This document shows positions 1-46,524 of a DNA stretch of 64,000 nucleotides, piece after piece. The notes under the pieces were generated by a model. The model saw nothing but the letters and a program-made list of their open reading frames with translations. It ran no database searches and was not told where the DNA came from. The position numbers and the translations under genes were made by a program. This stretch comes from Catajapyx aquilonaris. Lineage: Eukaryota. The stretch covers positions 124,001 to 188,000 of the forward strand of contig JYFJ02000032.1 of NCBI GenBank assembly GCA_000934665.2. Reading direction: 5' to 3'. Each line of letters begins with the position of its first letter. Within the stretch, counting starts at the first letter, position 1.

Positions 1-3000
1 AAATAATGCATGTCCCTTTCGGATAGCGAGCCGGTCCCAGAACCAGTTTGCATACCGCGGGTGTTGCAGTTGTCACTTCCCGAGTTAACCCAAGTCACCT
101 GTACCGCCAGTGGAAGAGTTATGCGCCGACTTTGCACACCTTGTCACTAGAGCTGTTTCCAGTGTACTTGTCCAGGAGTAAATGGTTACAAATGTGAGCC
201 TGCTCGTCGTTGGGAGGTACGCGATTACCCAAAACAAAACCTGTGTCTGCCCATTTTGATGGTAATTAGTGCAAAAAATTGGGCAAATTCGCGTGATATT
301 TCGCCTTCCGTGTATGAGGTGATATCCCACCTTCTCATTTATGGAACCAGCCCCCCCTTTCGTATATGGTTTCATAAAAAGGGGGCTGGCTCAGTCACCA
401 TTTCCTTCCGGAGCTTGTTGTCGAAATCACCCCCTTCCATCATATTCTAGGCACAGGGTGGGGAGGCCAAAAGGGGAAGCATGAAGGGTGGGGATAGGAG
501 GAAAAATCAGCGTCCGTCATTCTGGTTCCAATTCATTTCCTCTTTTATCTTTTCCCCTCCGGTTGGTCCACATCACCCTTTTCTGCTGCCTTTGTGCGGA
601 CGCGTCGCCGTCAACTCGTGTCCATTTCCCCCTGCGCTGTTTTTCCTTCCTTCCTCTGCCCCCCCTCTATATGGCTGTATACCCTCCCACAAAACAAACC
701 CATTACATCATATCCGGACAGTGTATACCAACTGATAATATCCTAAGGGCACACAAAAATTGTGTCTTGCATATATACGGACGAGCACATGGCGGCCGGT
801 TGCTGGGGAGGGAACCGGGCAATCAGACACCAGGCATTTTCCCAGTAAATTTTCACTCTAATTATCGTGAAACAATAGGGTAATTTGTGTCAAGTGCGGC
901 TCCCACGCGTCTCCCCCCCTCCCTTTTTGGCCCGATAAAATTATGGATTTGGAAAACTGGGTTCGGTTCGAAGCTCACCAGTTTGCAATATTGTCACGCC
1001 TGTACTTGTAATTTCTGATACACCGTACATAATGAGGCAATGCTTTCGTTTGTGCTATGGACAGTGTAGCATGTGACAGGGAGGTTTGAAAGCATAAAAT
1101 CAGCTCATTTTTCTCCCCCTTTTTTCCATCCCCAGCAGCTAGAGCAGTTTTAAGGGAATGGTAACCATTTCTGGCTCTCTGGCCAAATGAAACAGTGCCA
1201 GTGCGCGAGTGAAAAAGCGAGCTCGTACATTTGGGCGTCCCTATCAGGAGCAGCTCGCTGTGTACGTTTTTTTTTTGCGCGTCCATTATCTGGGAACTTT
1301 TGAATAGGAAAAGGCCTCGGCGGAATCGACCTGTTGGGGGCTACTGATGGCCGTGCAATAACCGGCTCAAGAAATGCGTCAGGCCCAAAAGGCAAGTTCG
1401 AACGGCTTCCTGAGCTGTTATATCAGCACATTAATGCGCAGTAATTTTCGAGGTGCTTTCGCGTGGATAGCTAGGAATTTTGTCGGGGTAAATTAGTGGT
1501 CAGGTGCGAAAATCCGTGAGAAAGTAGCAGTTTATGCTCTTTCGGAGTGCGGGGTGCTCGAGACTAGTAATCATCCTCCTATCAAAAAAGCCGTGGCATG
1601 AGACTGAAATGAAATGGTGTCAACCGCGTGCTGCTTATAGGCTAAGACACCCGTCGTCAGCAAGGTGCAAAGAAAACATCTCCTGACAGGATCAATTAAT
1701 GTCTTGAATAATCATGTTACACTTTTGTAAAGATTCATCCGCCTCCCCCAAAAAGTTAAGAGCAACTCTGATCTTTCCAAGCAGGTTGGTCGTCTCCATT
1801 AAAAGTTTAGATAATCAACGCTTGGCGATAACTTTTTTGGGCTAGAAAAAAAAGTCGATGTCGCAAGACGGTTTCAGTTATGCTCTTTGATATACCAGGA
1901 GCAACTTTTCGAATAAATTGTGGCAGACTGGCGAACTGAAAAGAGCTATATTTACATCTGATGAGAGAGGAGAGGAGTGGAAACTATGTGCCCTATTGCA
2001 TTTATAATGGGAGGTGTTTGGTGTAGAAAATTGTCTGGGTATACATTTTCGAAACTCGTAGACTTAACTATTTATGGCAGCAGGCCTTCTCTTCAAGTGG
2101 GAAAGTTGGGTGGTTCCTCCACTGAACTTTGATTTGTTTTCAGGAGCCCTCTAAGAACTTGCCCTGGTAAACAGACGAGATAATTAGATGCCTTATTTGA
2201 ATATGTACGCTATAGGAATATCCCGCCAAGAGGGGAAAAAAGTATAGGACAGATTTAATATCCCGCAAGGAAACTTTTTAGCACATTTTCAGCTTCCTAC
2301 AATGAGCTGCTCTTAATGAACCGTAAATGCTTTGGAAAAACTTTACCTGGCTTATTTCAATAAGTTTAATAATTTGGCTACAAGCACTGTATATACTGTG
2401 TAGGCTATACTGTACAGTGAAGAGTGCAGAAAACTGTTAAGGATCTAACATGCGTTGGAGTGACGCCCAAATGTCTTACTTACAACGAAGGTACGCATTT
2501 AGTTCAGTTTTTTTGCGTTAACTTCTGTCTCCGCTCTATATCTACACAGACATGCAGCTCAGACCCCCCAAAAAATGCCCAAAATACATGTACCTTTACT
2601 TGAAGTTATGTATATTTTCATGGATCAAGCAAGGCTTAGGACGGCCCTAATGCATTAAAATGACGGCTCGTAAGACCGGATCCGCCGAGAATATTAATGC
2701 AAAAGCGTGCGGAACGGGCGAATCTGGTCAATTTGTGCATAAATATTAGATGAAAGAGGCGCACCCGTCTTAGCTAGAAATAGGTCGCAGGCCCAGGGTT
2801 TTTGCGAGAGAAAAAAGGCTTCCACTTGCGACTGGTTCGTGTCCCACGCCAGTATAACAAGGGTAGCTTTTAGGCTGCAGCAGTGCATCAATACCGGTGG
2901 TGTCTTGTAGTCCTCCGAAAGATTGGTCGCGTCTCGAAGAAGCGCCGGCGCCTAGGGCGTAAAATTCACGGGCCACTAACCTTTCGATGGAAAATGTCAC

Positions 3001-4541
3001 ATCGGGGGCGCTGGCTAATGGCTTGACGCCGCTAATCTCCAAGACAGCTCCCGGAGAAGAAAAGGAGAAGAAGAAGAGGAGGGCTTCACGTGCATTTAGC
3101 CCCAGCAGCGCATGCAGCTTCTTTTCCTCCAGAGTTAGAGAAGAAGAAAAAAAGAGAGAGAAAGAGAAAAGAGAAGGATGGCTTCACTTGGCAATGAATC
3201 CGGAGGAATCACATCTGGGATTCTGACGTGCCGCCAACCAAATGCCCTTCCAATGAAAAGAGGATTCGTCAGCCGAATCTTGTAGATCTGGTCTGTCGAT
3301 CTGACTCCCAAGTTCTCGCCTTGTTACGTCCCAAGGATTTTATGGCTTCTGGTGGCCTCCGGATGCTTGCAAGTCGCAAACCCACTGTAATTGGGTGCTA
3401 CAGGGGTGCACATAACTTACAGGTACAAGCCTGACAGACTGGCTTGATAGATACGTCAACTGCAATGAGCTAATTGCCGGAAGGGTAATCACTCGGGGAA
3501 ATCTGTTGGCGTCTGAGATCAGCGGAAATGTGGGCATTTCCTGAACTTGTCCTGTGCGACGTAATCACAGCCGATTATTTTGATGGGCGAGAAACGGAAG
3601 AATCACTCAGACGTATTCACGCAGCGTGTTTTCTCCTACCAATGGTGGATCCTACTGTGCATAATAATACAGTAACTCCGTAATGATGGAACCCTGGATG
3701 CGCTGTATAGAGTGGGCAAGTCGCGTGTGACGAACGCAATAAAAGAGACAGAAAGCGTGCTGCCATTATCATATAGATCCAGTCAGTGTTGAGGTCGGGG
3801 GCTGTTGGAGCAGTGTTGAAATGGGATTCGTGCCAAGCCTATCCGTGGAGATACTTACAGTGCGAGTCGAAATCCCGTCGTCAACCGTGATGGGTAAGTG
3901 AGGGAGCTCTGACAGATTTCGCAGCAGAAAACGGCCTCACTGTCCAATCTTCCGATAATGTCAGTCAGGAGGGCTACCATAGTAATCTGACCGCCGTCAT
4001 TGCGCAGCAGAACCCAAATAGAGCAACGGGGACTTCTCTTGGCTTAGTCTTAGTCGAACGTTTGGCTCGAGAGCAACGACTCCAGACGAGTGTATAGGTG
4101 TATAAAAATGTTGGCTTGCCAAAATTTCAGAAATTTTATTTTAGCCAATACCAGGATGAATCCGCAACATTTTTTTTCATTTTGACCTGCAATGTGACCT
4201 TTCAGAGGACAATATTATGATACGCTGTGGCCGCCTGTGTATTTATTAGTGGTCAACTTTATGCAAATTCAATTGTGCGGGACAATGCCGTTATGTAGGT
4301 AGGCATTACAGGTGTTAATTACATATGTGGCTGGAATTTGTAATCAGTGAGACCCCAAACACACTCACCGGAATATCAGTACGTTGCTTTATTATGTAGC
4401 GTTTAATTCAATTTTGGGCATAAATTACCCACTAAACATTTTGAATGGTTTTCATTCTCTGCATACTTTTTTGAGTGACTGTCGATTTTGCTGTCAATTT
4501 TTACTGATGATATTCTCACCCAAGTATTTATTTTTGTACGG

Positions 4542-4578
4542 TACTAACATGCTCCATATTTTCTCCTTGCAGGTAAGA
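4542..4578 (+). other. Candidate recursive splice site (ratchet point): branch point, polypyrimidine tract, AG|GTAAGA
   Basis: TACTAAC at 4542-4548 (branch A 4547, 25 nt before the junction), then atgctccatattttctccttgcAG (AG 4571-4572) followed directly by GTAAGA (4573-4578); no AG between 4525 and 4570. Confidence 0.7.
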
Positions 4579-4643
4579 GCCAATCCGTCACCACAACTAC
4601 CTTTTGTATCCCAGTCTCACGCAGTGTGACACCGCGTCAGAAA
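4573..4643 (+). other. Candidate 71-nt recursive-site (cryptic) exon
   Basis: Starts after the strong acceptor at 4572 and ends at a consensus donor GAAA|GTAAGT (GT 4644-4645). Open in only one frame (xKSQSVTTTTFCIPVSRSVTPRQK); length not a multiple of 3. Confidence 0.55.
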
Positions 4644-4770
4644 GTAAGTGCGTTAAAACGGCATAATCTTCCTCTGAAGAAGCAATTTTCGCAGCGAAAA
4701 TGTTCTCAAGACTTTCCTCATCCCTCGAGATGATTTCGAAGTCTCGCATCAGGCTTCTCAGCGTCATTAC

Positions 4771-4800
4771 CCTCCTCCTCCTCCTCCTCCTCCTCCTCCT
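4771..4800. repeat. (CCT)10 microsatellite
   Basis: Ten perfect CCT units read directly. Confidence 0.95.
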
Positions 4801-7800
4801 CTTGCTGCTGCGTTAAGCCTATTTGGTCTTGCACCACTCATCCTCCTATTTGCACAGAAATGACTCTTATTTATTGATCTCGCGAGAAAGTTGAAGTGTA
4901 GCCGAGGCGTGGTGTCAAAGCACGCAGAGCGATCCGCCTCCTGAATATGGATAGGGGCAAGGAAAAAGATTCCGGCTGGTTGGGGAGGGGAATGATTCGT
5001 GGAGCGTCGCGACGCCTTGTGACACCCTCGAAGCGACAGGGCGTCACGTTTAATGAAGGCCGGCAAGGGAATAGCCCAAGAATGATCAAACCCCATGCAT
5101 TAACATGGGCCTCACGGGCCTCTCTCTTGTTGTTCCAAGCCCTATGTGTGTGGCCAGTGGACATGGCAATCAGGCCTCTCTCTCTCTATATAGTCCGCCC
5201 CCTTCTCTGCAATCAGTGCACCACACAAGAGCAAACACACCGTTTTACACTGCTGACGAATGCCTTGTTCTATCGTGCTTGCACAACCCATCCTCCCTCT
5301 CTCAACCTACCTACTGCTATAGCTGACGCTGGCTCCAAAAGCACTCCTTTTCAGCACGAGGATGAGCAGATATATACCTAGGGGGGGCTGAGATGGTTGA
5401 AATTCCAGTCGGCGCGACTCGAATTTGCATTCATCTGGTAATTTGTCGCTTTAGTTTATCATATGGAATGAGTCGATCATTGCATTTTATGGAGGGGCGG
5501 CAATTGAACGACTTGGTCACTGCACCGCCCTGGATGTAATATTGAGGAGTTATGCATGTTGTAAGGCTGCATTGTATAAGGCGCCAGTGTGGTGGTGAGT
5601 TAGAGATGTAATATTCATTCTTGCATTCATTACTCGCAATTACAGCCCATCAAATGCATACACAGGCGTCGCAGTACTTTTTTTGGGACATTTTGGACGT
5701 CCAGACCAGGCTCATTAACACTTTACCATCAAGTTAAAAAATTTTACCACCACAATCGTACAACTTAATGAACCCATCAACACTGTTGTGCCCTACTATA
5801 ACTAGTGCTAATGACATTTCAGTTACGCTAATAGATTCAAGACAGTGAATATCACTAAAGGGAATATTTTGCTACTGGTACAGCATTAACCTACGGAATA
5901 AATAGTTTCGTTGTCCACGCAATGTCATCTAAAATGTGGGGGAAGCGTATAGGAATTTTTTCAATCCAAAAAGTGAGCATTGCAAAAAGAAATGTAGATC
6001 AAAATCAAGCCCACTTCCCATACCTTCGACTAGAAAAAAAAATGGCGAAGGGTCTCTCCTCCCCCGCCTCTTTTTTTATACATTCTGGAGCTCTTTCTTC
6101 GTCTTGGTTCGATGCGAGATCAATCAGGCTCTCTTCCTTGTCAAGCAGCTTCGCCCTGACTATGAGCTCCTCTTGGGCTGGGGGAAGATCTAATTATGAT
6201 GGGTTAGAAAGGCACGTCTCGGGAATGACGATTTATAACCCTCATGCATTCCCTATTTCCGCCGGTGAGCTCTTGCGGACTTTTTTTTTGCAACCTGGGG
6301 AGCTGTAATGCCCAGGTTCATCGGAAGAAAAGCTTCCAAGAATGGCATCCAGGAGACTCTGACTTAATGCATGGACTTGTCAGGGGTTTCCTCCACAAAA
6401 ATATTATTTGTATGAAGGTCGTGTCTTCGGGTATGGCCATAATAAAGCGGACTTCCGGAGGTCGATTCCATCCTGAGAAATAAGTGGTTTATCGCAGTGG
6501 ATGACCATCAGAGCTCTTAATTATGAGGATGGCTTCTGGAACAAAAGAGGTCGGAGGAGAAAAAAAAAGGCCACTATCTGCCACAAAAGGTGGGGAAGAG
6601 AGAGAGAGAAAAGTGGCACCCCATTTCTCCTTCGAGAATTGACAGGACGGAACATCGCAAAAAAAATCGGCAAGCGAGCAGGGACTTGTGAGAAGTTCCC
6701 GGCGAGGACGCCTCGTAAAAGTGATTCCTTCTTTCCTTGATGGCAGGACATTTGCGCTACTTTCTGGAGAGATTTTTTTTTCCTGAGCTGTTATTTTTTT
6801 TGTAGGAGTGTCCTTTCAACTTCCACCCTTCTTTTCACCCTTCCTTCCATTTGCTTTCTTCCGGAGACTATTCGCCACAATGTTTCGTCGCAATGCCCCC
6901 CCATCTACGCTTCCTGCTTCTGCGCGAAACATTCGTCACGATGTACCGGTCCCGTCACTTATTCCGTATAGATATTGACAAAATGGCACAAAAAAAATCT
7001 GCAAATTACCTTACGTATTCAGTATAAGGCAGGACGTGCCCTGTACGTAAAATCAACAAAACACAACGTCTTTTGCGGAAAGACACATTTTGCCTACTTT
7101 AAGTCCAATTTTTGCCCAGACTTGAGCGTATTTTATAAAATTTCAGGATAAATTGCAGAATAAATTGCGTTTTATTGGATGGGTCGAAATATAAATTCTG
7201 TTCAAATATATAGGGTGCTATTTCAAATGTGGAGTGGGAAAATCCACTCGAAATAATTTAGAGAGCAGAAATATTTCTAACAGAAAATTGGATTGGCGTC
7301 GCAGCGGAGGGCGTGTTTTTTTCAGTCTTATTTTGAGACAAAAATGGGTTTTTGGGCAAGGCCAGTAGGTCCTGCGCCATTTCTTTTTTAGCCACCTCCA
7401 GCTCCAATGGAAGAATTCGCTGTGATTTTTCCGACTGAAAGGTCCGAGAGGAAATAGGGTACGGTCGGTTAGGTCGCAGAAGGGAAATGCGGTTTGTCCA
7501 GACATAAATCGAGTCAAGTTCTCGGGCCAAAAAGTTTTCTGATGATTTTGAGCAGGCCTTGACCGTGTTTTATATACACAGCCCTGGGGCCCCCAAGGAA
7601 GTGTTGAGAGAGGCCCCCACAAAGAATCCTATTGATCCCAGCAGCCCGGTCCAGTCTGTAGGCTAGGTTTTTCCGGAGCAATAGTGCCGTCTGCGGGCCA
7701 TTCCCGGAATAAAAAGAAAAACTGCAAGTACATAAAGTTGGCAAGGGCTGTGGCCCGTATTGCTTACGGCGCGAAAAGCTCGCTTAGCTGGGTTTCTACG

Positions 7801-10800
7801 AAGAGCTTTCCTGGCGCTGTCGTTGCAAGATTGAAGACCGGAGAAATTTTAGGGGACGTCAATAGCATAAACCCGACGGTAGAGGACTGAAGAATTGCGA
7901 GCACATTCTCGCACATTATTAGGATTAATTGCGGCGTGTCTCGGAGGCGAAATGCGAGGGGTCAGACGGTCGACACCCGGACGTGTGAGTGCGTGTGTTG
8001 GGTTGGGGGGACACCAGAGCAGGAAAAATCTTAATGTGGAAAAAACGGGGGAATGCCCCCAGAGTGACATTTTATGACGGGGATAAAAATTTATTATTTA
8101 TTGGAGGTGTCGTAAAGGAGACGGGGCCTGTGCACGGGGCCAGAGTGATGGAAGTGGACACGCGAGGAGAAGAACCCGTGCTTCCAGACTCATCTAATCG
8201 ATGTGTGTGTAGGTATATAGGTGGTGCTGAGAATTCGACCAGACGTATATAACAAAGGACATCTTTTATTGCGCTGTTTTGCTGCGGTCAGCCCTTCTTT
8301 AGCGTCCAATGAATGGGGCGGACATTAAATATAGGGGCTGCTCAAAAGGTGAGGAGCCATTCACAAAAGGCGGACGTAGCCAAATGGCTGTAAGTCACAA
8401 GTTGAGCTGCTGTACACCTGTGCCACAGCCATTTCGATATAAATGAAAGTCGGTTGACATACGCACGCTATAGAAGTTGGCAATAATATTGAGGTACGTT
8501 ATTGGCATTGCAGCCTCTCTACTACTTAAACTTAATGATGCGGGTGGGACAAACTTCAAGAAATTGTCATTGGGAGTATCGGGTACCACATATGTGCCAA
8601 GTCCATTCATTGCAGTCCTCTTGCTTTGTGCAATGCCTTTTTTTATTGTGCGTTGAGGGCATGAGGTGTGGATATTATTTTGTTCCCGCCCAAGCCAAGC
8701 AATAAAGTGGCATAAAAATTCCGTCAAAGCACCCCCACAATGGAAGCCGGCTCTCAGTTTACCCCCTCTGATCGTATTACTTTGTGTGTGCGGTCACTTG
8801 CGAGCCAACGCCCATGAGGAACATTTGGCACTACATTTTATAGCCTCCTTGTGCTATGCAGAAAAGCATGGGGACATAATGACCCGCGAAAATCTGTGAA
8901 AAATACTATTTTTTTGTTGGGTGTGTTTTGAGGTGATTTCCATAGTCCGTGGACTCCCCTTGTGGGCCGAATGCACCTGTGTCATGCGTGGCTAATTTTG
9001 CGGGCAGGATGACGGACAGGAGGCGTGGTAGCGTCCTCTGAGCTAGAGATGTGACCCCCATCTGAAAGGGGCATCGCTGTTTTGCTAAAAACCGACTGAG
9101 GATTTTTTTTTTCCAACCCTTTAAAGTTGGCCCCGACAAGTCTTTGTCTGCTGGACCAAGATTTTAGTACGGTCCTGATTTTGAACTGGTCCAATACTGA
9201 GCTGGCCGGAAATTAATTTTACGCTGCTTCTGGCCACCTGCATTCTTAAAATAGAAAAGAAAATCATTTTGAGGTACAGCGACAGCATTTTTTTTTACGG
9301 ATGATGGATGATGTTCGTGAGTCACGCAAGTTGTAAGAGAATGATCCCAAAAGGTAGTCCCTCTTGGCGCTCTCATCACTGGACAGACACTGCTTGCAGC
9401 AGGGGAGCTTCATATTGGTCTCGTTGCTCAATGTCGCCAAAACTTGTTTGGGATTTCCAATGGCGGAAACTTTGTGGGAAGTCGAGCCTTTTGTTCTGGT
9501 TGTTCCCTCCGCGAAGCTTTCGGGATATAATTCCTAACTCAACCTCAGAATTGCATATAGTGTGTGCATCTGGAGCTCATCAAAATGAGCAAATCCGAAA
9601 ACCAACCTTCCCCCCCCCCTCACCCCATTCTGACGTGAGAGCTGGGGTTTGCAAAGGCTTCGAGCGTCATTATACTGGTTTCTGTTAATGATGTCGAGTC
9701 AAGCAGTGAACATGTATATGCATAAGGCTTCAACGTTGCGGGTTTGTATGTGTGAAGAGACCGGAATATCCGTCTTGGTTAGTTATGAAAGTGTAACGAA
9801 TGTATAGGCGAAAAGTTTCTATGACCACTAACTAAGTCACTTTCCAGAAAAAGCTGACTTCATATTAATTTGCTGATGATTGCATAGTGACAGGATACAT
9901 TTGTTTAAATTTTTTTTCTTCAGAAAAATGGAGAGGTGTTTACCAAATGTGTGGCAATAGGGCGGAGGGTGTGGATTTGCTCGCAATTTGTCATTCTTGC
10001 ACTTGGTCTGCAGTAGGAAGCGGCGAATTCCCCTTAATGAGCGACGGATTAGTAGAGGTAAGAGCCACTTTGCTGGATGGAATGGAAAGCATTAATCGAA
10101 TGGCGGATACTGGGGTCGTAGGAGGAGCAGCTTCCCCTTTTGGAAAGGAAGAGGAGGAGGAGGAGGAGAGAAGCTCACGTCCTCTAGTCTCCCCGTTTTC
10201 CTTCCTCCAACAAACCTTTCTCCTAGTCTGCTTCATTAATTAGCAACGTCTGAGAGGGCTGCGACAGAAATGTGCTCAAATCGAATTAGGCTCTAGAGTT
10301 TAGCCAAGTAAGGGAATTAAGTAGTTTAAAGTTCATTATTTAAAACCCAATAGTGGGTAAAATTGTCTAACTTTGTTTTCTGCTACACTCTTTTTCGCTC
10401 TCTCTCTCTCTGTGCTGCACTAATATTAGCTAGTACTAAAGGCGCAGTGAACTTTGAGGAAATCGTGCGGTGGGCTTACCGGGGCTTACTACACGCGACA
10501 GAAGGAAAGGGGCATGGCCAAATTAAATTTCGCTGCCAGGTGGCTCTGAGGCGAACCGAAACTTCCGGACCTCTGGCACGACGACGACGTTCGCAGCAAT
10601 TAAGGACTTACCACCAATCAGGGCTGAGATATTTCTTATCACATATACGTCGTGAACTGTTGAGTTTTCGACGTGTCTCCATACCTGTATGACATGACAC
10701 GATGCAAATTATTTCCCTGCAGAGCTGCAGCCTCTGAGGCAAGGGATTACAGATTGGTGGAAAAAGAGAGCTGTTGAGATGTGGAGGGAGGGATGATGTA

Positions 10801-13800
10801 ATGGAGCAGAGAGCGTTTCGGATAGAGCAAACATAATCGGGTAGATGGGCGTTGAAGCGGGTCATGATGGATGAAGAGCGTGCAAGTGAGGGAGGCTGCG
10901 AAAGAGGCTGCCTTTGCCTGCATGCAAATCTTGTCTGGAGCTGCTTCTGCTTTGCCGCACTGCCCTCTGGCCCTTTTCCCAGTCCATCCCTCGGGGGAAA
11001 ACAGAAAAGGAAGGGAGGGTTTGGGGCTGCCGGATAGAAAGAGAGGAGGAGGGGGGATAGAGGGGGAGGTATTAGGAAGCAGCAGGGTGATTACCAGGAG
11101 GGGATTTGACCAACTCATCAAGAGGGGGTGGAGGCTTAGATCTCTATGGTGACGGCGGTCCATCCATCAGACCCTGCAGGGTCTATATATATACACTGTA
11201 CTTTCCTAGTTCTGGTGAGGAGACGCTCTCTGCCGAGAGGAAACTGCTCCAAACAGATTTCCGGGCTCTTCAATTGGCGGCCCAATTACCACTACCTTCT
11301 TTCAGCATTAATAGCGACGGTTATTGCCCCTTCCCCTAATCCGCCTCAATTACCTGGCGTGTTGGAAGAAGGCTTTGCGCAATTAGCCCACCGCCTGTTT
11401 CACAGGGTAAATGCCGGCGGACATTTTCAAAGGTACTGCTACTTCGGCCAAAGTATGCCCGGAACTCTCAAAAGCTGCGAAATTTTCCCCTCCCCACGTC
11501 TCTCTCGGGGCCGTATTTACTGGAGACTTGGAGCTGCAAAAACTGAGCTATAAAAACGACATATTGCAACTGATGAGAATCGGGGCCGGATTACACCATT
11601 CATTAGAACTCATTAGGTCGGATTAGGGGCATAGAGTGCGTGTAACAGAGCAGTTTTGTTTTGACACTGTTTTCATATATGATCTATTTGGATTGCAGAG
11701 TGCTGTTGTGTGGCGCTGAAGCGCTACCGAAACCACACCCCAGCAGCGGGTGAGGTTTTCCAAAAAATTGTTTATACCTATAAACCGTGTTATCCGGTAT
11801 TGTAAATATTCCCCTACCATTCCCGGCCTTCATGCCGTTCTCGTTAAAATTTGGCGTTAATTAGGGCGTAATTAAAGAATACATTTGTGTGCCCCTGGTG
11901 ATGGGCAGTGTTATTCTTGCAGCATAAAAATGACTTATGATCAACTGTATAACTCAAATGAACATTCTCTGATTTAAAAAAAATGCAATTCAAATACACT
12001 TTGCTAATATTTATAGCGTTGGCCTGTACTAATGATGGTCATGGTTCACCTGTATGTGCTACTACAGTAGTCTATATTTTGACTCATTATCAAGCTGATT
12101 TTTATTCCAATTAATGTAAAATGATGCAAAAATGGAGACAATGAAGCTGCATTTTGCATGCTAGTTATTTCAAGTAATTTAGTAACAATAACCTCGCTGG
12201 TGTACGAGACACATTTACATTATTTAAAAATTTGCATAATGCCCCCCGCTAAACGTAATTGAGTTATCTGCAAAATTTTACTGATGAAAGTTGCATTCAA
12301 TTAGTTACACTGCAATAATAACGTTTTAAGTGCCAGAGAGTCAGAAATAACTAGTTTTACCTGGAAGCCCCACATGCTGATAGACTAATGATTGTTGGTT
12401 CCATGTGACTCTCCTGCAGTTAATAAGCATTATTATAGATATTTTGGGAGGAAATTAGTGTTATTTCTCTGACAGACAAACAACAGTGCAACTACACGAC
12501 AGATTGCAACTACTCCCTTGTTTCATGTTAGTCACATTAATTAGTAGCTTTGGCAGGATTCGGCAAGTTCTCCTTGCCACATCCCGCAGCATCTGACGCA
12601 TTCAGCCAGCCGGGTGATGGCAATCCGACGCACAAATCCGGGATTGGCACCGCAAAAGTCTTCAGGTTATCTCCGAAATGAGATCCTCTCTAGTCGGAAA
12701 TAAAATCCTCGCAAAATACTTCTCATGTCGAGGATTTGCTTCTTCCCTGGGATTTAAATCCTTTCGCGGGTGTCAACTCGGGCACACGCTGGAGTCCCGT
12801 AGTTTTTGTTTGTGACAAGAGCTGCACAGCACAACGGGGTCGAGAAGGAAAAGCGCCTCAAGCAAAGTCCACCGAGAGAGAGAAAGAGAGAGAGAATCCG
12901 GTTGGTGCTGTGTACAATCTCTGGGTGCCATCACCATGGGCTGTTGCTCCGCGTCCGACAAGTGAAACGGACGCACAAGCCTTCCTTCCAGCAGACATCC
13001 GGAATAATCTGGCCGCAACAGATGTCCCCGGTGTGTTTTTGTCTGAGTTTGCTGCCGCCTTTTCCACCGGTCCTGGCTTGCTGGAGAGAACAGCTCGCAG
13101 TTCGAGCAGCCCCAAGGAGGATTGGTCCATTAGCCGCAGCCCGCAGCATGAAGCGATGTTGAATAGGCCATCGGACAAGAGAATTGCTCCGGAGTGGAGT
13201 GGGAATTGGTTATCGTCCGCCTCGAGTGCCACTTCTTGGACTCCGGCCCGGTTCCTATACACTCACAGATGCCTGTCTATATACGACTGCCTTCTATATA
13301 AACTCCATTTTATGGCCACCCCACTCTAGGTCACTGGTCCGACTTGCTGCAATTTTCGATTGGTCTGAGTGGCACTTGGAATGCCTTCTTCATCATTCCA
13401 AAACCAAGTGCACGTTTCTCTGGGTTCCCCTCCCCAACTTTTGGTCCCCCTACCCCCCCCCCCCCCGNCCCCCCCCTGAAGGAAGAGATTGTTATTGATT
13501 AGCTGGTGGTGGTGGGGGCTTTTGATGTCATTCCGGCAGAGCTTTTACAGGGGGAGGTGCAGACGACAGGAATGATTGTTAGGTCGGTTCAAAGCACGTG
13601 CGCTTACTGCAGGGTGTTTCGTAATAATTCTAGAGCCAGCTTGTGTCTGTTACGTAGCCCGGATTTGCACGGATGTCAAGCACGATTGTGGCTGAGGAGG
13701 CTGTGCGATGGCAGCCGGATATTAATAATATCGTGCAGGGAGCCGATTGCCCACACTGGTCTGGGCTGTGTGCTGCACAATCAAGTCATCTTAACCAACA

Positions 13801-14260
13801 CGGAAAGCGCATGGCCAGGCTGAAGTACGGCTGGGTAAATCCAGGCTGACACTAATCCTCTTTCTGCCCGATGGCTGCGAAGAGGAAGCCAAAAAAGGTT
13901 TATTGTTGGGGGGGGAGGCCCGAATTGGTAAGAAGGGAACTAATTTATTGTAGTTGGGCTTGCTGCTCCTACCCCCCTCCACCACCACCACCCCCCACCT
14001 TTTGTTGGTCGGTTCTAAGAGGGGTGAGCTGTAAATCTGCGGGATTTCCGTGATTTACCTTTCATTCCGGAGGGTTTATGGCTTCAGAAGAGGGGGAGTG
14101 ATGGCCAATGTGGCAATCGGCAGCACGCGAATTCAGGTGTTAATGTTATCGCTGCTGCAGGCTCATTGTTAGGGCATAAACGCAAGACTTGCATAAGACG
14201 ATGCCACCACCCGCACCGTTTCCTTTGCTATATGGTAGATAGTGAGGGCTAGTTCAATCA

Positions 14261-14400
14261 GACTTTTTAACTGTCGGTTAATTGGTTGATTAGTCTAAAC
14301 TGGCTTTTAGTTAATCGGCTGATTAGCTTAAACTATCCGGTTAGTTAATTGGTTGATGGCTTAAACTGGTATGTTAGTTCGTAATCAGCCAATTAAAGTC
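14261..14400. repeat. Degenerate 33-34 bp tandem repeat (3 copies) with inverted-repeat ends; possibly MITE-derived
   Basis: Units GTTAATYGGYTGATTAGCTTAAACT...TTA start at 14277, 14310, 14344; 14382-14396 (TAATCAGCCAATTAA) is the reverse complement of the unit start; GACTTT (14261) and AAAGTC (14395-14400) form terminal inverted hexamers. Confidence 0.75.
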
Positions 14401-17400
14401 AAAATAATGCAATCCGTAATGCCGCTGTAAGCTGCAGGTGGCTCATAACTAACTGTTAAAAATAGAGGTAGAACCAGGTATATGAGTGAAGTGTTTGCTT
14501 TTAAAAATTATATGATAATGAAACAGTTATGTGTGGCTATGCAGCGGTTAGAAATTTTTTAGAAGTCAAATGGCGGTTCTATAAGAATCTTAATTTTATA
14601 AAACAGGTGTTCCCGTCGCTGTGGTCAGGTAAATGAATTACTATTCTGCTCAAATTCAGGTTGACGGAAATGTAATCCTGAACCGACCCACTTCAGGGCA
14701 GATTACAAAGGTCATTTAGAGCCTAAGTGGACAACTCCTCTTGCACCTGGCGATACCCTTTTAGCTGCTTGACTGACGCTTTTGGAATAAAATAGATCAA
14801 ATCTCAGCCTGCTGGTGATCCTTGGCATGATTCAGATGCATTTCTACCTGCTTGGTTAGAGAAAATTGTTGGTATTAGTGATCATCAAGGACAGTTAAAA
14901 TTCAGTGTGAGCCACGTGCGTAAACCAAAAATAGACTGAAATTGCACGTTCTTGCAAGTGTATTACTGTATTCATATTAACGACATTTTAACTATTAATG
15001 ATAACTCGACCCTGAACTTTTGTATAACTCGTAAGTAAGATTATTTTCTTTGTAATACGACCACTGATACCCGCAGTTGATCATCGTCTTTACTTCCCGC
15101 TAACAACAGATCGGCATCTTGTAACCCAGAATTGCTCTAGAAAGGCCATATGATGGTAATCACTACTGAGAGCACATTAAACCATACCTCGAAAAAAAAC
15201 TGATACAGATTTATGAATTTTACACGATCAAGCTGCGGAGGATACAAGCCAATAAATCGGAAACTAGGATTACATTCGATATTAATCGTATCATTTTTCC
15301 GTTATATGTAGTTAACCCTCTATCAGATTCTACCTGATATTTCCTCTGCCCTTTTACGGTGGGCTAAGTTAAAATAGGTTTTCCCCTAGTTTAGTAGCTG
15401 CCATGGCGCATCAAGCTCCCAGCATGATGTGTACAGATGGTGACGGCATTTCCAAATTCCTCTGCGCCGAGATTCCAATTACTAACTCGATTTTGACCCG
15501 GCATACCCTACTCGTCATAGGCCGAAATGCTGCAGCACTATTTAATCCATCATGTTGTCGAGGCTTCCCGTTGCTTGCTGCAAATGTCACTGTAAACTGT
15601 ATAGGGGAGTACGACCCTAGATTTGTTCCAAGTCTACACAGTTACGGAATAGTAAAATTTGCCATCTACCTTTTACGGCCACTAAAAAGAGGAAAGTTTC
15701 ATTTAACGAATGTCGCCGCCATCAAAACACTATAGAAGTTTCATCGCGGGTCATCGGAGTTAATCATTCCACGTCATTGCCATCGTTGCAAAATTCCCCA
15801 TCGGGGGTTTTGGCTTTGTTGTCACGTACAAAAGCCTTTCCAACAATTCCACATGCGCTCTTCAATTTGCCGGAAACGTAATGGCACAAGTTGGAGTTAC
15901 ACATGTCAGTTACACTGACAATCCCCGGACAGCAAACCACGATTGAAGCCAGCACTAGTTCTCTCAAAAAATTTCTAACAGGAAGCAACAAGTATTTCCG
16001 CTCTAATGTGACTGCATTATCCGGCAATTCTGGCTTCCACGTGTAATCCGGGGCCCATAGGACTCGTCTCCAGATTTCACACGCAGTAATCAATCCGGGC
16101 CTGTGTGCTGTATACCCAGACTAACTAGCCTTGTGTCCACAGCATTTCCCCCTGAAGGCGGAGTGACTCTCATCAAGGCGGCTGTGTCTTGCTGCTTTCT
16201 CGAGGGGTAGGGCGTTTGAATCAGTACTATCAAGCAGCCTCCATGCACGTCTAAGATGCAGCTTAATTAGATCACGGACTTTGGGAATCCGAGAACTTGG
16301 CTCTTCCCAAAGTCGCGAGTTCCGCTAGAGTTGGCTTGGCTCCGTGCTGAGCGCCACCTTAATTTCAAACCCTCCGATTCCTTCCGGGGAGGAGGAGAAA
16401 CAGACCAAGAGAGAAGGAAGGAAGGAAGGAAGGAACAGTAGATTGAGTGATGTAGGAAAAAGAACAGAGAGACGAAAAAGAGAGAGAAATCAGGAAAAGT
16501 TAATTTTTTTTTTGCGCCTGCACTTTGAGCATCGTAGTTTTTGCGAGGAATGAAGGATATAAAATGGACTCGTGGGGAATATAGAGGAGTCTGTGCTGTG
16601 TCTTTTGTCATGATTTTTTCCCCGCTTTCTTTCAGCACATTTGTTGCGTCATGAATGATTGCTGTTAGCAAGGTATTCTTTACAGTTCCTCCAGACATTG
16701 ATTCCGAGGAAGAATGAAAGCAATTTCTTCAAATTAAAGTTGAAAGGAACTGACTATTGCGAAGCATTAATCAAATTCCTGCTTCGACGGGCATAGATTC
16801 CTATAATCTAAAAATCGATTCTCCGTCGGCAAAGAAGATTTTCAGACTGAAAAGTATAGAGAAAGTTATCATTCCGGAAATTCTGGCTATATAGTTGGCA
16901 AAATGCTTTTGTTGCCAGTTACGCGGTAGATTATGCGATATATACTGCTGCATTATTTTAGTTCATTTTTGTGTACAGTCCGTACACTGCACATTTGCAG
17001 TTCTTTGTATAGGCACATGTCGCCATGCATCTTGTAGATTATAGTTATGCCTATCAGTATAGGCTTATATATAGCGTCGGATATATGCTGAATTTGTGCG
17101 ACTGTATATGACTAGAGCGAGTAAATTCAGCGTGGTTGGGACATTAATTGTGCCTCAATTAGTTTTAACGTGCACCACTGGTCTGAGCTTTCATTACTGT
17201 TTTTGACGAGTAAGGCCTCGTTCAGGTCGACCAGCGCTAATTAAATGACGGAAAATGGCCTTTACCAGGGTTGATTTATCGTCCAGTTTTCATTGTAGGA
17301 AGTCTTCGTGTCGGAGTTATTAAAAGCTCCGTGCAAGAACGCATGGAAATAAAATAAGTGAAACGTGATATAACGCATTAGTGAAGGAGGCGTTTCCGGA

Positions 17401-20400
17401 ATTCCACGAAATCGAAGCTTCGCCTAGGAAACCGTCGTTTATGAAAAAAAAAAGGTAGGGGGAAAAATCGAGTGATCATTCCTGTGTGGACTTGTCCCAA
17501 GTGAAAAATTTCTGCGTGATTCTTAGCTACGAATACTAATTATATCCCGGCACGATACGGAAAAAAAGTCACATTTATCTCCCGCATGTACATTTCCGGA
17601 GTCCGGTGGACAAGCTGTACTTTTAGGCCCGTAAAAAATTGGGACAAAAAGGTGCGCGTCAGCAGTTCACCATGGCGGGCAACTCCCACTTGGCAACACC
17701 ATTATTGCAAGCACAGTGTATATGTTATATACTGTATATTCCACTGAGCAACTAAATGACGACACCATCACGCTGCGACCAGGGCTTGCCGAGAACGCAG
17801 GAGGCCATTGTTGGCCCAACACCGCGCTATTGTTTCGACCCGGAATTTATAATGTGGACGCCATTGTGCAATATTGGTCTTCCCTCAAATTACTCTCCTT
17901 TTAAAAAGGACCTTATATAAAGTACTATACACAACAGGCAGTGCCGGAATCCCCTCTTGTAATTAAAAAGGGTGCGAGAATAATGACCTCGGTGATGCCC
18001 TCCCCATTCTTGTTTTCTGCTGAGCATCCCTCTGGACCTGCGGTATATGCTAGCCACCATATAAATATGTGCAGCAATATTTCATGATTCTCACGAAACC
18101 CCTGTCCAGCAGTGTGAACTTGGGTGGGGTAGAAGGAGTGGTCGCCAATGCTGCTGATATGTGGAAGAAGCTTGTCTGGAGGCAATAACTTCCAACTTTT
18201 GCCATGATTAGGACTCATAGTGTGGTTTAATTAGATTTATTTTACAACACATAATATAATGGCACACAGTGCGTACACGGGGAAAAAATAGCGGAGAGTG
18301 CACTATAGTTAGAGGCAAAACTTGAAAGCTTCCCTAGAGGGAAGCCGACATTCCCACGCTTACTGTGGCATGAAACAATTAAAAGGATAACTGTAGCACT
18401 TTTCCCTCAGGGCTATGGTGGTGGTACGGTGTGTAAGGGACGAGAGACCATTTCGAGGTTTTAGAGAGGGAGGAAGGGGGGATAAAAAAAGAGGAGAGGG
18501 GGCTGGAGGCGCAATGCACTCATGTACACGAGAGATTGTCTACACGAATCATGCGAGCTGGATATTCTAACTAAATTAATGGTCCCCACCATGTCGTGTA
18601 GCTCCATCACCCGGCAGCGGCAATAAAACCGATATGCCAGCCATGATAGCGGCACTTGAAGTGCATCCAAGTGCCATGGGAGGTGACCCACGCCATCTTT
18701 CTTCCTTTGTTTTAAGGATTAGCAATGGAGGACCGTGCACTTCCGATGGATCAAAAAAAAAAAGTCCAGCATATATCTTGGACTGATTTTTAGGACATAT
18801 ATACCAGCAGGGGAGGGGGGAAAAAAGGAAGAACATGTCACTCCTTCCCGGGAGTAATGAAGAAGAATGAGTCGTTTCGACAACCGATAAACAAGGTAGA
18901 TTTGTTCTTCGATCCTATCAGTTTTGATGGCGCGAGCTCCGACTCCATCAGTCCAACAGGTGCGAGATATTTCAGCTCTGAGCTGCCCAATTACGGAGGA
19001 CCTCCTGCAAGAAAAACTCGTTCAAACTAATTTGAGGTGCCTAACTTTCCTTGCCGTTCCATTCCTCCGCCTCGGCGACGTTTCTTGCAGTGACATTTCT
19101 CTTCCCCCCCCCCCCCCCCCNTCTCCATCCCACTACCTTCTTCTTTCGTTCTTTTTTTTCCCCCACCGACCCCAGGGGGACACTGTATATTTTCCCCCAT
19201 TTGTCATAGAAAAAGGAGAAGGAGAATTTTCAAACTTGCCCTTCCAGTAGGCTTGAAAAGAAACTCGGGGCTAATTTATATGGCCACTAAGCAGAGTAGG
19301 CATAATGGCCCATGCGGATGGCATGTGTACCTGACAAAAGTCCGGAGAATTTCTTGGTGGGTACTTCACTGCTGATGTCGGGTGTGAGTGATAACTATGG
19401 CGTTCCATGACTCGTACGGACCAAAAGGGTCCGGTATACCGGTGCCAGCAGGACGCTAATATAAAATGGTGCTTACCTTAGGGATATTTCGTGGGACCAA
19501 GACGGATGTTATTTATTTTTAGTGGACTTGCAGCACTCGGGAGAGATTTTTGTCGTCTTTCTTAACGGGTTGGAATTCTTGCCTGGCTTGCTCGGTCGAA
19601 ATCCATTGGGCCGAGATCATCTGTTTGTCCGCTTTACAGAAACAGATACAAAATTATTTCGGACCATAATGCGAATTTTTTGACAAAAAGTCATTTTGCA
19701 TTGCTGCGAGTAGCCGAATGATATTCAGTGGCCTGCAATTATTCAGCTCTCGGCGGAACGGACTTGGACTTTTTTTTTGTAACCATTTGGGTTGTGGTTA
19801 GGCCAGGCCCCCTTGGTTGGAATCCATGAGAGGGCATGATTAGGTGGGGGAAGCCACGGCATGTTCTCGACTTGTGACCCCTAAATTTCCAGCCCCAGGC
19901 AGCAGCAAAGAGAGGCCTTCTTCTACTTCTTCTCTCTGGTCTGCAGCTCACCTCGCAGCCTCGCCCTTTCCACCTGCTCCCATCTAGGGTTTTCCAGCCC
20001 CAGGCACGCGTTTCACCACGTGTGAGAATGATGGTCAACTTTCCTGCTCTGAAGCAGCAGCCAGCCTGCCAGTTCTGGAAATAACTCGGGGCTTTTCACT
20101 AGAATCACTAGAAAAACGGGCATTTCCCTAGAATAAAAAAGCAACTGCGGGGGCCATTATAACTTCCCCTGTAACGCTGCCAAGTTTTGCCAACTGGAAA
20201 ACTGGGAGTAATTAAATCTATCAAACAATTGGTCGGCATGCGTCATTTTCATGCAACACATACATACAGCAAGCCGCAATGATATTTGCATCCCCAATTT
20301 TTTAGCATGTGGTATCGCCCAAAAAAATACTGCATTACAGCGCCAACAGTCCAAATGAAATTACATCCAGCGAAATGGATAGTCTTGCTGCATATTGGTA

Positions 20401-29313: not shown

Positions 29314-29344
<31 letters not shown>
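29314..29344. repeat. (CT)n microsatellite, about 15 units
   Basis: Read directly. Confidence 0.95.
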
Positions 29345-29346
<2 letters not shown>

Positions 29347-32300
29347 AAGGGCTATAGGTTAATAATATATTGTTGATGCTTCCGGAATGATTGTACGCTC
29401 AGAATTTTAGAGGAAAATTGAATTAGACATGATGGCATGTTGTGGTTGTGGTCCGAAGTGGGTCCGGAAAGGTTTAGAGTAAATAAAACGAAAACCGACT
29501 TGTAAAATGTTGATGCGCCTCTCCTATTAAAAAATAACATTTGCCTGTAGTGCACCTGCTGGGACCATGTAAATCTGACCAAACTCATGTTCTGTCTGTA
29601 TACATGTAGAAATGTCCCTCAGATTATCTTCGAACGTAGGCGTACCTCTTCTCTTGCATGTTGTATCCTTTGGAGTGAAGGAGTCGTCCAATATGAAAAT
29701 AACTTCGGGCATATGTGATTGTCAGGTCTTATTCGTCTAGTGTCTAGTATTTCGTATATGTGCACTCATACGCCTGGAAAATTGTCATGCATAGACAAAA
29801 TCTGCAATCGCATAAAGAGGCCATATTTGCATTAGAATATCCGGAAGGAGTGCACATATTGCATTTCCCTCCCGCTCTATTTTATTTTTTTCCCCCCCAT
29901 GACATTACGGATTCAGAGAAATCTCTATTTATATTGGGGGCCAGCAGTGTCGAGAATGATAAAGTGAGTATATAGCCGAGAGGCTGGGTCTGTGCTGCTG
30001 AACCTAGATGTATCTTTGGTAGAAACAAGAGTCGCATCTGCCGTTGGAAACCTTTGTGGCTTCTGGCCAAATTCACTTGTTGCCCCGAGCGACCATTTTG
30101 GTCGGAACAACTCTTGTGGAGCTTGACGGTGTTTGCCTAGCAACTCCCGTGATTTCTGCATAAGTGAAATGAAAAGCGTATAGTTTGGCCAACTGCCATT
30201 TGGGGAACGCCCGCCTCAAACTGCAAAGGCGACCTTGCCGCAACAACAATGCCGCCCATCATCAAACTTCCATGCGGACTATTGTTGAACTTGCCGAATA
30301 CTATGGTTCCGGGTTCAATCGCAAATGTCAAAAGCACTGTCTATTAATATATAGATATCCCACTGCGGTCGTTTCTCTTTCATTTCCTGGTCATTTCCAG
30401 CACGCGACTTTGCCAACTGTTATCCCCCTTTGCAAAACCAATCGCTATAAAGTTCTGTTCCTTTATTTTTTCCTTTCCTCACCAAAAAAAGAGAAGCGAG
30501 CCGCGCACCTTGGAAGATAATGAGGTTATGAAGGAGTTTGAGGGTGCAAGTCCAAAACTTCCACTTGCTCAAAACTTTACTTAACACCTTTAAGCTTGCG
30601 GGGGCTTGGCGCCTTCAGGAAAGTACAAGTTGAGGCTCTGCGGGATCTCCGCCAGGCCCAACCCCTATCTCCAGTTTTCATGGGGCCAAGATTAGAGTCC
30701 TAAGACTCGGCGGCGTTAATAAAAGGCACGGGGAACGCAGCCTCTGGGCTCTCTATATGCGAGAAGAGGTATAAGGAATTGGAGCAAAGGCAAATAGCAG
30801 AGGACATGTCATTCGTTTCAAGAGGAATGGGGAAAATATGCTGGGCGACCTCGTGGGGGTCGGAATCTGCCTGTGGTTTAGGGGAATCGATCGAGCAGCC
30901 ATGGTATAGGTGCTGGGGGGTGTACGATTCACTCGTTGTCTATTTTAGGTGAGCGCCCAAAATCCCACACATGCACTCGACTCTTTGACCCGGGAATGAA
31001 CTGCGCCCTGTGTTGCGGCAAATTCGCGCTTGCCCACCGGCCCCATCCCAGGTCTTGTTGACAATTTATGGCACCCCTGTTCATATTTTTGGCGAGTCTG
31101 ATGGTCGGGGGGCGCCGCCTGTGTGCGTAGTGTGTTTTGGACAGAAATGTGCGGGTGTACTATAAAATACCACTTGAATAACGAGGGTTGAGTGCTCCTG
31201 CGGCATATGCTTCACCGCTGAGGAAGTGAACAGCAAGGGTCGTCTAACATACAGGACCATGTGGTATGGCGCAAAGAACCACCTCAGTAGTGCTCTTTAA
31301 GTGATGATCACTTAACATACTCCCTCTGTGCAAAGAACGATAAGTGGGGTGTTGACAGAGGCGACCATTTTGTCTATAAATAACAGCAATATAACAGATC
31401 GTGATTACAAGAATGATCCCCGCCCAACACTGTCTTTTGGCCCGCAAAAATCTATAATCTTCAGGGACAAATAAAATAAATCGCGCCAAGCCATAACCAT
31501 ATTTCTCGGCAGTATCCGATAGGCCCTCTAAATGTTTGATAACAGCCCCGTGCTCCCATCCCATCATGAAGCAGATGCATTCTTTATGGGGGCGATGCGG
31601 CCTGGAAAACATTGGATGGTCGGTAAGCAATGGCGAAGCGCGGCATAAAAATTGCATCGCCAGCCGTTTTCAACACTGCCAAGAGACATCAGCACTTGTC
31701 CTTTCCTTCTTTTCCATTGCGAAACAGTCTGAGAGACCTCCAGATATTGGAGAGGGCAAGGGAGGGGTCGAAGGCGGCAAAGTCGCAGCCAATCTATCAA
31801 AGTGGTGCGCCTCGGAAAAAGAAGGAAAAGTGCAGCCAGGATTTCTTTTTGTGTGTGTGTACAAGAGGTATTGGGGAGACCCGGCCCTCTAGGCATAGGT
31901 AGAAAGAGAGAGCTGGTTGGCTGTTGGAGTATAGGGAGGAAAAAGCCTCTCCAACGCCATCTGTACCCTGGTGCTACTCTGGGCTTAGAGTTGGAGGCGG
32001 CCAGACCGGCTTGCTCAGTCAGAGGTGGTCGGGGCCACGGGATGGGTCTCGGGTGTTTGGCCTTTGTGTTGCGGGCTCAGTACCGCTTGGACATTCTTCG
32101 GATTCGAACAACAGGTAGGATACATATATGTGAACAGTTCATTTACTTGTCAGTGCGGAATTATTATTCTGGGAGAGCCGGCACATTGAGGGAGCCGGCT
32201 TCACACACGGCCCGGGAACATATAATTTGCAGACATATCGGGCGGGAAATGAGCCTTGGCAGTGTAACGAACCGTATCGTTTGTGTGGTATTGGTACACG

Positions 32301-41600: not shown

Positions 41601-41646
<46 letters not shown>
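41601..41646. repeat. (CT)23 microsatellite
   Basis: Read directly. Confidence 0.95.
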
Positions 41647-44600: not shown

Positions 44601-46524
44601 TCGGCTGGATCGATGCGGATTGCTTGTCGTTCGACAAGACTATATGAAAGCGCAGCAGCATCAGAGAACCTTGTGGACTCTCCCTTAATCATCATAAAAT
44701 TGTAGGGGATGCCATGAATCCAGGCGTCGCTCCTGCTTCTTGGCACACACAAGATAATCTTCAGATCATTTGCATTTCCTTTTTCTAACCATTATCCGGT
44801 CTCTCTTTTTTGCACCGGCAAAGGATGATCAATCTTGGTATTGGGACTTGTGTAATTAAAAACCAATCATGGCCTATCGTGCTTCTTGAGTTCAGATTAC
44901 AGGTTCTCGTGTGATGGCTTAGAATGGACCCTTAAAACACATCGATTCGCACATACTCTCCTTTGGATATATATTATACCCCTCCTGCTCATTAAAAAAA
45001 TAACGTGACGTGTCACTCATTAGGAGCCGAAATGACTTTTGAACGGGGTTTGTGCTTCCGCCTGTCGATTACTATGAAGCGGCGGCATGTTCTGAGGACA
45101 AAAGCGGTAGCGTGCTGTCATGCCTGTGGGTCAGAATACAATTATCTGTATCATTCTCATTTTTCACCTATTTTTCCTCCCACACCCCCCACAAACCCCC
45201 TCTGGCCATTGTTCATCTTTCTTTTGTGCCGGGGTGACATGCAGCAAAAATTTGTGACTGATGGTGGTTCATGAAACGTTATGTATGCCCTGTCGTTGCT
45301 TGCAGGTTGCACACGTTGCCACCCGAAACTCACCTGAATGAGACTCAGGGAAAAAAAACACCCAATTAATTACGCTGGCTGTTCATTGAATTCCAGCCAA
45401 CTGAATGCTGTGCCACAACCTTTTTGAACAGTTTTGGCGAATCACCTTGTGCAATATCGGGCCACATCACAGGGGTCAAAACACACTTTTTCAATGTTTT
45501 TCTGGCAGATTCGCCTAAACAAGCAGCAGGAAGTTGTCAATGTCACTAGACATTAACTTGGTAACACCCTGTAACCGTGCCAAGTAGTCACAAGTCAAAC
45601 AAGGGAAAGGTTGGCATGGCTCAGGAGAGATAAGACGGGCACGTGGTATGCGACGACTGTTTTAACCGACGTTGAAAGGGCCTGTAAGTCCACAGGGACA
45701 AAGCCTGGGAGGAGATGATGACCAAAGTTTAATAGGCAGGAATAGAGCGCTTAGCGTCATTTTACTGCTCGCCATTCAATTAGGCGTCCGAAACTGCGAG
45801 AGGCATTAGCCACCCTTAAATCCTCAAAGCGATTTCTTGCCGAAAACCGTACATTCTATATATTATATAGGTAGTCTGTGCGACAGTGTCCGGTCGATTC
45901 CTTGTGGCCGAATTTTAGTGATAAAACATCCATTCATTAGTGTGGATAGGGGGAAGGGAGGGGCACATGCCTAAGAGAGAATCCCGCCCATATAATCCCA
46001 ACATGAAACTGGGAGACGCATAATGAGACAAAGTGAAATCCCCCTTCCCGAACGGAGGCCTGTTTTCATTAGGGATATTCCTTGGGTAATAAATGAGTGA
46101 CAAGCGCGCAATTTGCCTGAAATCTTCTCCGGCCTCTAGGGGATGATTAGGTCCATGCAGAGTCAAATTACACGTCAATCTTCAGACGGAGGAGGGCGGA
46201 TTTCAAGAGAGATTCGGACCCACTTTGAGGCTGCTGCGTATACTGGTGACCCAAGCGGACGTTCGGAGAGGCTTTTTTTTAGATATATATCTGAGGGGGA
46301 AGAGGAAATAGCTGGGATTCCTGGCCAGACTTTATTGCAGCAGGTAGAGGCAAGAGATCCCAAGATGGTTCCTTTGGGATGCGGCTCCCGAATGTGCAAT
46401 CATGGCAGGAATGCAGTGGCCGGTATTGAATCATCTGCCAATGGAACTAATGAATTCTGCTTCCGGGAATAAACAGCATAGGTTCAATACAGCAGCAGCA
46501 GGTTTCGTTCAGACTGAGTGCTGC

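Follow-up and report, generated by a model that had tools for sequence, protein, structure and literature searches.

We identified a candidate recursive splice site at position 4573 on the plus strand of a 64-kb stretch of genomic DNA (hereafter the window, meaning the whole stretch that was analysed). Judging from its anatomy, we put at roughly 0.55 the probability that this is an intronic ratchet point of the Drosophila type, with an RS-exon that is mostly skipped and a host gene on the plus strand. The candidate is probably a further instance of a well-described element and not a new kind of element. Fly ratchet points consist of a juxtaposed acceptor and donor, with a pyrimidine tract that is stronger than usual (Duff, 10.1101/006163), and the part of Shepard 2009 drawn on here cites Burnette 2005 for "zero-nucleotide exon" ratchet points. 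Cryptic RS-exons that mediate recursive splicing are the subject of Sibley 2015 and of Joseph 2018, both taken here from the sections of PMC8605326 that summarise them. An earlier, sequence-only reading of this DNA had given as general background that recursive sites are an acceptor fused to a donor and are defined through a short downstream exon that is normally skipped, and by the fly literature this background is right. The features of the candidate are as follows, with a slash marking the splice junction within a motif.

4525-4570, plus strand: AG-exclusion zone, 46 nt free of AG and containing the branch motif
4542-4548, plus strand: branch-site motif TACTAAC, with the predicted branch nucleotide A4547 at position -26
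4549-4569, plus strand: polypyrimidine tract, ATGCTCCATATTTTCTCCTTG, pyrimidines at 16 of 21 positions
4559-4568, plus strand: unbroken pyrimidine run TTTTCTCCTT, 10 nt
4567-4568, plus strand: TT at -6/-5 of the acceptor, by direct reading
4570-4572, plus strand: acceptor CAG (3′ splice site), with the junction at 4572/4573
4573-4578, plus strand: candidate ratchet-point donor GTAAGA, the 5′ splice site that would be regenerated after an upstream exon joins 4573
4573-4643, plus strand: putative cryptic RS-exon, 71 nt
4644-4649, plus strand: RS-exon donor AAA/GTAAGT, 71 nt downstream of the junction, which would define the exon

The TACTAAC, the AG-free tract, the CAG/GTAAGA and the GTAAGT 71 nt further on that the earlier reading had claimed are all present where it placed them. 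Read together, tract, acceptor and donor give TTTTCTCCTTGCAG/GTAAGA at 4559-4578, and between 4480 and 4575 AG dinucleotides start at 4523 and 4571 only. TACTAAC occurs four times in the 64-kb window, counting both strands together, and A4547 is the branch point that this motif predicts. No competing donor was found within the RS-exon (4573-4643), where even the best GT agrees with the consensus at no more than 5 of 9 positions. Stop codons interrupt frames 1 and 2 of the exon, while frame 3 is open for 23 codons. As had been claimed, including the exon in a coding region would change the reading frame, since 71 is not a multiple of 3. The predicted RNA fold of 4500-4700 was no better than those of shuffled sequences (z = +0.88).

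To place these features, we compared them with those of fly ratchet points. The likeness lies in the (Y)nTTNCAG/GTAAG juxtaposition, in the TT at -5/-6 and in the long non-coding setting. Whereas 43.8% of all fly introns carry TT at -5/-6, 196 of 197 fly ratchet points do so, and the branch points of these sites, usually an A, lie mostly between -36 and -21 (Duff, 10.1101/006163); the A at -26 here falls inside that range, as a matter of motif position. A perfect TACTAAC heptamer, in contrast, is not stated as a fly feature. Ratchet points of the fly type are further marked by a strongly conserved acceptor/donor core, as compared with other AG/GT sites in introns, and at the RNA level by split reads that join an upstream 5′ splice site to them, by sawtooth coverage and by recursive lariats. 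The 12-mer core TTGCAGGTAAGA (TTGCAG/GTAAGA) has 4 occurrences in the 539-row table of fly sites (Pai 2018 S1, PMC6110457), and among the 47 motifs from those rows that were examined by eye, all 47 have TT at -6/-5 and 23 have TTGCAG. With its A at +6, the candidate carries a form that is in the minority among fly sites: AGGTAAGA occurs 7 times in the 539 rows, whereas the commoner donor forms AGGTAAGT, AGGTAAGC and AGGTGAGT occur 37, 43 and 51 times, respectively (Pai S1, PMC6110457).

The putative exon was compared in the same manner. According to the parts of Joseph 2021 (PMC8605326) drawn on here, RS-exons are short (~50 nt, variable), generally out of frame and poorly conserved, and the exon at 4573-4643 resembles them in being short (71 nt here, ~50 nt in flies) and out of frame, and in having a donor at its downstream end. 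After an upstream exon ending in G, its ratchet donor would be the stronger of the two, which is also the usual order in that source; exon definition, donor competition and skipping at this locus are all read from the anatomy. The Ubx microexons likewise begin with GTAAGA (Duff, 10.1101/006163), so that the motif stands directly after the acceptor in both cases. However, Ubx mI and mII are expressed RS-exons of 51 nt, frame-preserving and conserved as coding exons in the account of Joseph 2021 (PMC8605326), whereas the candidate exon has 71 nt and stops in two frames. Poison cassette exons, which trigger NMD, offer a further parallel, as the 71-nt inclusion would similarly shift the frame of a coding region; this is a likeness at the level of sequence, and Joseph 2021 (PMC8605326) discusses how RS-exons and poison exons are connected.

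Ratchet-type sites have also been counted in other invertebrates. In the portion of Shepard 2009 used here, rates are expressed as sites per 100 kb of introns longer than 50 kb, on the sense strand vs its complement, and the enrichment of such sites on the sense strand ranges from 4-fold to more than 20-fold in five invertebrates.

Fly: sense 2.2, complement 0.10
Mosquito: sense 1.03, complement 0
Bee: sense 0.48, complement 0.12
Beetle: sense 0.81, complement 0.10
Sea urchin: sense 0.54, complement 0.07

At these rates, a ratchet-type site found in a long intron of an invertebrate is far more often the product of selection than an accident.

Next, we estimated how often such an arrangement would arise by chance. 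The bare 8-mer CAGGTAAG is found once per strand (at 4570 on the plus strand and 28709 on the minus strand) vs ~1.9 expected, which is chance level. Adding the tract changes this: YYYYYYTTNCAGGTRAG, which joins a tract to TTNCAG/GTRAG, has one match in the window and none in 100 dinucleotide-preserving shuffles, though with one mismatch permitted a match appears in 20 of 100 shuffles. The composite CTAAY..TTNCAGGTRAG..GTRAGT similarly has a single match in the window and 0/100 in shuffles. With element frequencies taken from 127,560 positions within the window, the number of composites expected per 64-kb window, both strands included, is 1.1e-5 with TACTAAC and 1.2e-3 with CTRAY. Among the single elements, TACTAAC is found in the 48 nt that precede a random position with a probability of 0.0013, a tract of at least 16/20 pyrimidines is reached at 3.2% of window positions, and a GTRAGT follows a random position at a distance of 20-160 nt with a probability of 0.039; tract and TACTAAC together have a joint chance of ~4e-5 per position. 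A YAG/GTRAG preceded by at least 16/20 pyrimidines was present in 4.7% of 300 Markov simulations, and the fuller composite in none of the 300. As the criteria were fixed after the site had been seen, the estimates given here are post hoc, but the margin that they leave is large.

We then scored 379 AG/GT junctions of the window (202 on the plus strand and 177 on the minus strand). A relaxed ratchet filter passes six of them, three per strand, so there is no plus-strand enrichment, and of the six, the junction at 4573 alone combines this with a branch motif and a donor downstream. It is the sole junction of the 379 with all parts. "Strongest signal in the window", the wording of the sequence-only reading, is a fair description. 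The next best plus-strand site, at 55259 (tatag/GTGAGT), has a poor tract and shows neither TT at -5/-6 nor branch motif nor downstream donor. The minus-strand site at 45333 (ttcag/GTGAGT) has a second AG 8 nt upstream, and is also without TT at -5/-6, branch motif and downstream donor. No second strong plus-strand ratchet point was found in the 59 kb downstream of 4573, so the candidate is without a companion over that distance; in flies, the host introns measure 11-133 kb and the removed segments 2.6-63.6 kb, with a mean of 18 kb (Duff, 10.1101/006163). When a 20-nt core of the site was used to scan metagenomes, the one match was an unrelated GC-rich contig without similarity in the flanks.

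We then examined the surroundings of the site for signs of coding sequence. In a Pfam scan of all 639 stop-to-stop ORFs of at least 50 aa, none reached the curated cut-off; there was one sub-threshold match (E 0.006, 16.4 bits vs a cut-off of 27). Codon-position periodicity did not exceed that of random ORFs in any of the 23 ORFs of at least 150 aa (all P > 0.13), and no Rfam family was matched in the window. Given the lack of a Pfam family, of codon periodicity and of an Rfam match, the window looks wholly non-coding. Long ORFs are more numerous than in a second-order Markov model, with 82 vs 57 +/- 7 of at least 110 aa and 5 vs 1.45 of at least 200 aa. This excess sits on both strands, often in overlapping ORFs, and probably reflects patchy composition, not coding. 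Two plus-strand ORFs have ~260 aa, one at 31733-32515 and the other at 60066-60845, the latter with P = 0.015.

The placement of the site in a long plus-strand intron, by the fly standard one of at least 11 kb, is putative, and an intergenic setting would also be compatible with a non-coding window. The putative host exons most likely lie outside the window, or inside it but unrecognised. Base skews were considered for strand assignment and dropped as ambiguous: the plus strand has T in excess of A (17,242 vs 16,663, a difference of 579), which is sense-like, whereas its excess of G over C (15,606 vs 14,486, a difference of 1,120) conflicts with a plus-strand sense, as the coding strand of invertebrate introns is reported to have more T than A and more C than G in the portion of the Drosophila skew paper used here. 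The cumulative GC skew climbs almost steadily through the 64 kb; transcription, replication or composition may underlie this asymmetry.

A repeat origin of the locus was ruled out, because the sequence is single-copy: each of three DNA runs, probably of the source sample, has one contig that spans 1-4761 unbroken and with even depth. Contigs of these runs reach at least 20 kb beyond the upstream end of the window. No variants are listed on 1-20000 from the DNA-run contigs, and the X5 contigs contact 1-20000 only at short low-complexity pieces.

From the anatomy, we infer every step of the following path. U2AF and U2 would bind the tract at 4549-4569, the TACTAAC with its A4547 and the acceptor CAG at 4570-4572, while U1 at the 4644 donor would define the 71-nt RS-exon across the exon. 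The upstream exon would then be ligated to G4573, and the first intron segment would be freed as a lariat branched at A4547. The ligation would rebuild a donor of the form xxG/GTAAGA, which is predicted to beat the weaker AAA/GTAAGT. RS-exon and remaining intron would next be excised together, and the mRNA would bear no mark of the step. If the 4644 donor were used now and then, 71 nt would instead be inserted and, within a coding region, cause a frameshift.

Donor strengths were compared by pairing with what we take to be the U1 5′ end motif. The ratchet donor forms a U1 duplex of -8.0 to -11.0 kcal/mol where the upstream exon ends in G, and of -9.5 to -11.0 kcal/mol where it ends in AG; the sequence CAG/GTAAGA itself gives -11.0 kcal/mol. 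The RS-exon donor AAA/GTAAGT gives -6.7 kcal/mol. Were the upstream exon to end in AAA, however, the ratchet donor would reach only -4.5 kcal/mol, weaker than the -6.7 of the RS-exon donor. The strength of the rebuilt donor is thus conditional, as it depends on how the upstream exon ends. Throughout, the comparison is one of crude U1 duplex energy, not of NNSPLICE scores as in Joseph 2021 (PMC8605326).

Several other explanations were weighed against a ratchet point. The 71 nt between the 4572 acceptor and the 4644 donor may be an expressed cassette or UTR exon of some mRNA or lncRNA, with the GTAAGA at its start either driving regulated skipping, as in Ubx mI/mII, or incidental. Acceptor, branch site and downstream donor would serve such an exon too, it would have one frame open for 23 codons, and it has fly precedents, including the Ubx microexons that begin with GTAAGA. 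In the reporter results given by Joseph 2021 (PMC8605326), moreover, the level of RS-exon inclusion differs, and donor strength predicts it only in part. The same source, in the parts used here, nevertheless counts fewer than 50 expressed RS-exons in flies vs more than 500 intronic ratchet points, and the exon at hand is not divisible by 3, has a stop in two of its three frames, is spanned by ORFs without a Pfam family and ends in a donor that pairs with U1 less well than the ratchet donor; an accidental GTAAG at the start of an ordinary exon would also be improbable. We therefore regard an expressed exon as unlikely. A chance motif without function, in DNA that is untranscribed or transcribed from the minus strand only, seems to us somewhat less likely again. 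It is favoured by the chance-level frequency of the core 8-mer, by the 20 of 100 shuffles that match the tract-plus-core pattern with one mismatch, by criteria set after the fact over very many scanned windows, by the equal number of relaxed ratchet-like sites on the two strands and by the plus-strand G>C, which in an invertebrate fits a minus-strand sense. The full composite, however, is absent from all 100 shuffles and expected 1.1e-5 to 1.2e-3 times per window, and the antisense or intergenic background is ~0.1 per 100 kb in the rates taken from Shepard 2009. TT, branch distance, AG exclusion, downstream donor and predicted donor order are independent features, and all agree. Both the chance explanation and that of a coding exon are weakened.

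The earlier reading had proposed a functional recursive site, and every part of this that can be read from the sequence was found; a function is plausible on this anatomy. It had also proposed that the 71-nt exon could act as a poison or isoform switch. Here the frameshift and the stops in two of three frames are as such a switch would have them, whereas fly data, in the account of Joseph 2021 (PMC8605326), suggest that most RS-exons are simply skipped. A working recursive site beyond Drosophila and vertebrates whose 71-nt exon is a regulated, frame-shifting switch, in which the strong yeast-like branch site and a near-equal pair of donors would enable regulated inclusion, is an improbable reading. 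Use of the site as a donor only is more doubtful still: it would be the 5′ splice site of an exon ending at 4572 or 4643, perhaps an unannotated first exon, or else an intronic U1 landing site that suppresses premature cleavage, and the acceptor-like features upstream would be incidental. This would suit the strong pairing of CAG/GTAAGA with U1 (-11.0 kcal/mol), the plus-strand frame 1 that is open over 4351-4626 and the 36 AATAAA on the plus strand of the window. It leaves unexplained the TACTAAC, the tract, the TT at -5/-6 and the 46-nt AG-free zone, of which tract and TACTAAC have a joint chance of ~4e-5, and the ORF at 4351-4626 has no Pfam family.

If the ratchet point is real, it would mark a very long intron, and the gene would probably be a developmental or neural one; fly recursive genes are enriched for these classes (Duff, 10.1101/006163). 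The site would also be a precise target. In fly kuz and Ubx, altering the ratchet donor forced inclusion of the RS-exon (Joseph 2021, PMC8605326, in the sections used here), and by analogy an altered donor at 4573 should force inclusion of the 71-nt frame-shifting exon. The candidate would further add to the evidence for ratchet points in non-fly invertebrates, which is mostly computational in the part of Shepard 2009 drawn on here. The general understanding of recursive splicing would be unchanged even then.

Finally, we note several minor features of the locus and the window. A minus-strand ORF at 4600-4812 overlaps the RS-exon and its donor; it is rather protein-like, with a possible 56-codon reading from an ATG, and its poly-R run, which precedes that ATG, derives from a (CCT)10 repeat. 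As a gene it was rejected: a search of 1.84 billion representatives gave no relative at E <= 0.001, and it has no Pfam family. The (CCT)10 is a perfect microsatellite at 4771-4801, ~125 nt downstream of the RS-exon donor, and the contigs of all three DNA runs break at it, between 4761 and 4815. Speculatively, pyrimidine-tract proteins with a repressive effect on exons could bind this CU-rich repeat next to the cryptic exon. The window contains three N (13468, 19121, and 37530), each within a long C or G homopolymer, and between the poly-C sites at these positions the contigs break or differ in length, with false joints. C or G runs of 10-17 nt are common across the whole window. There is also a 33-nt tandem repeat at 14277-14379 (3.1 copies, 73% matches), and (CT)n microsatellites are present at 29314-29344 and 41601-41646.
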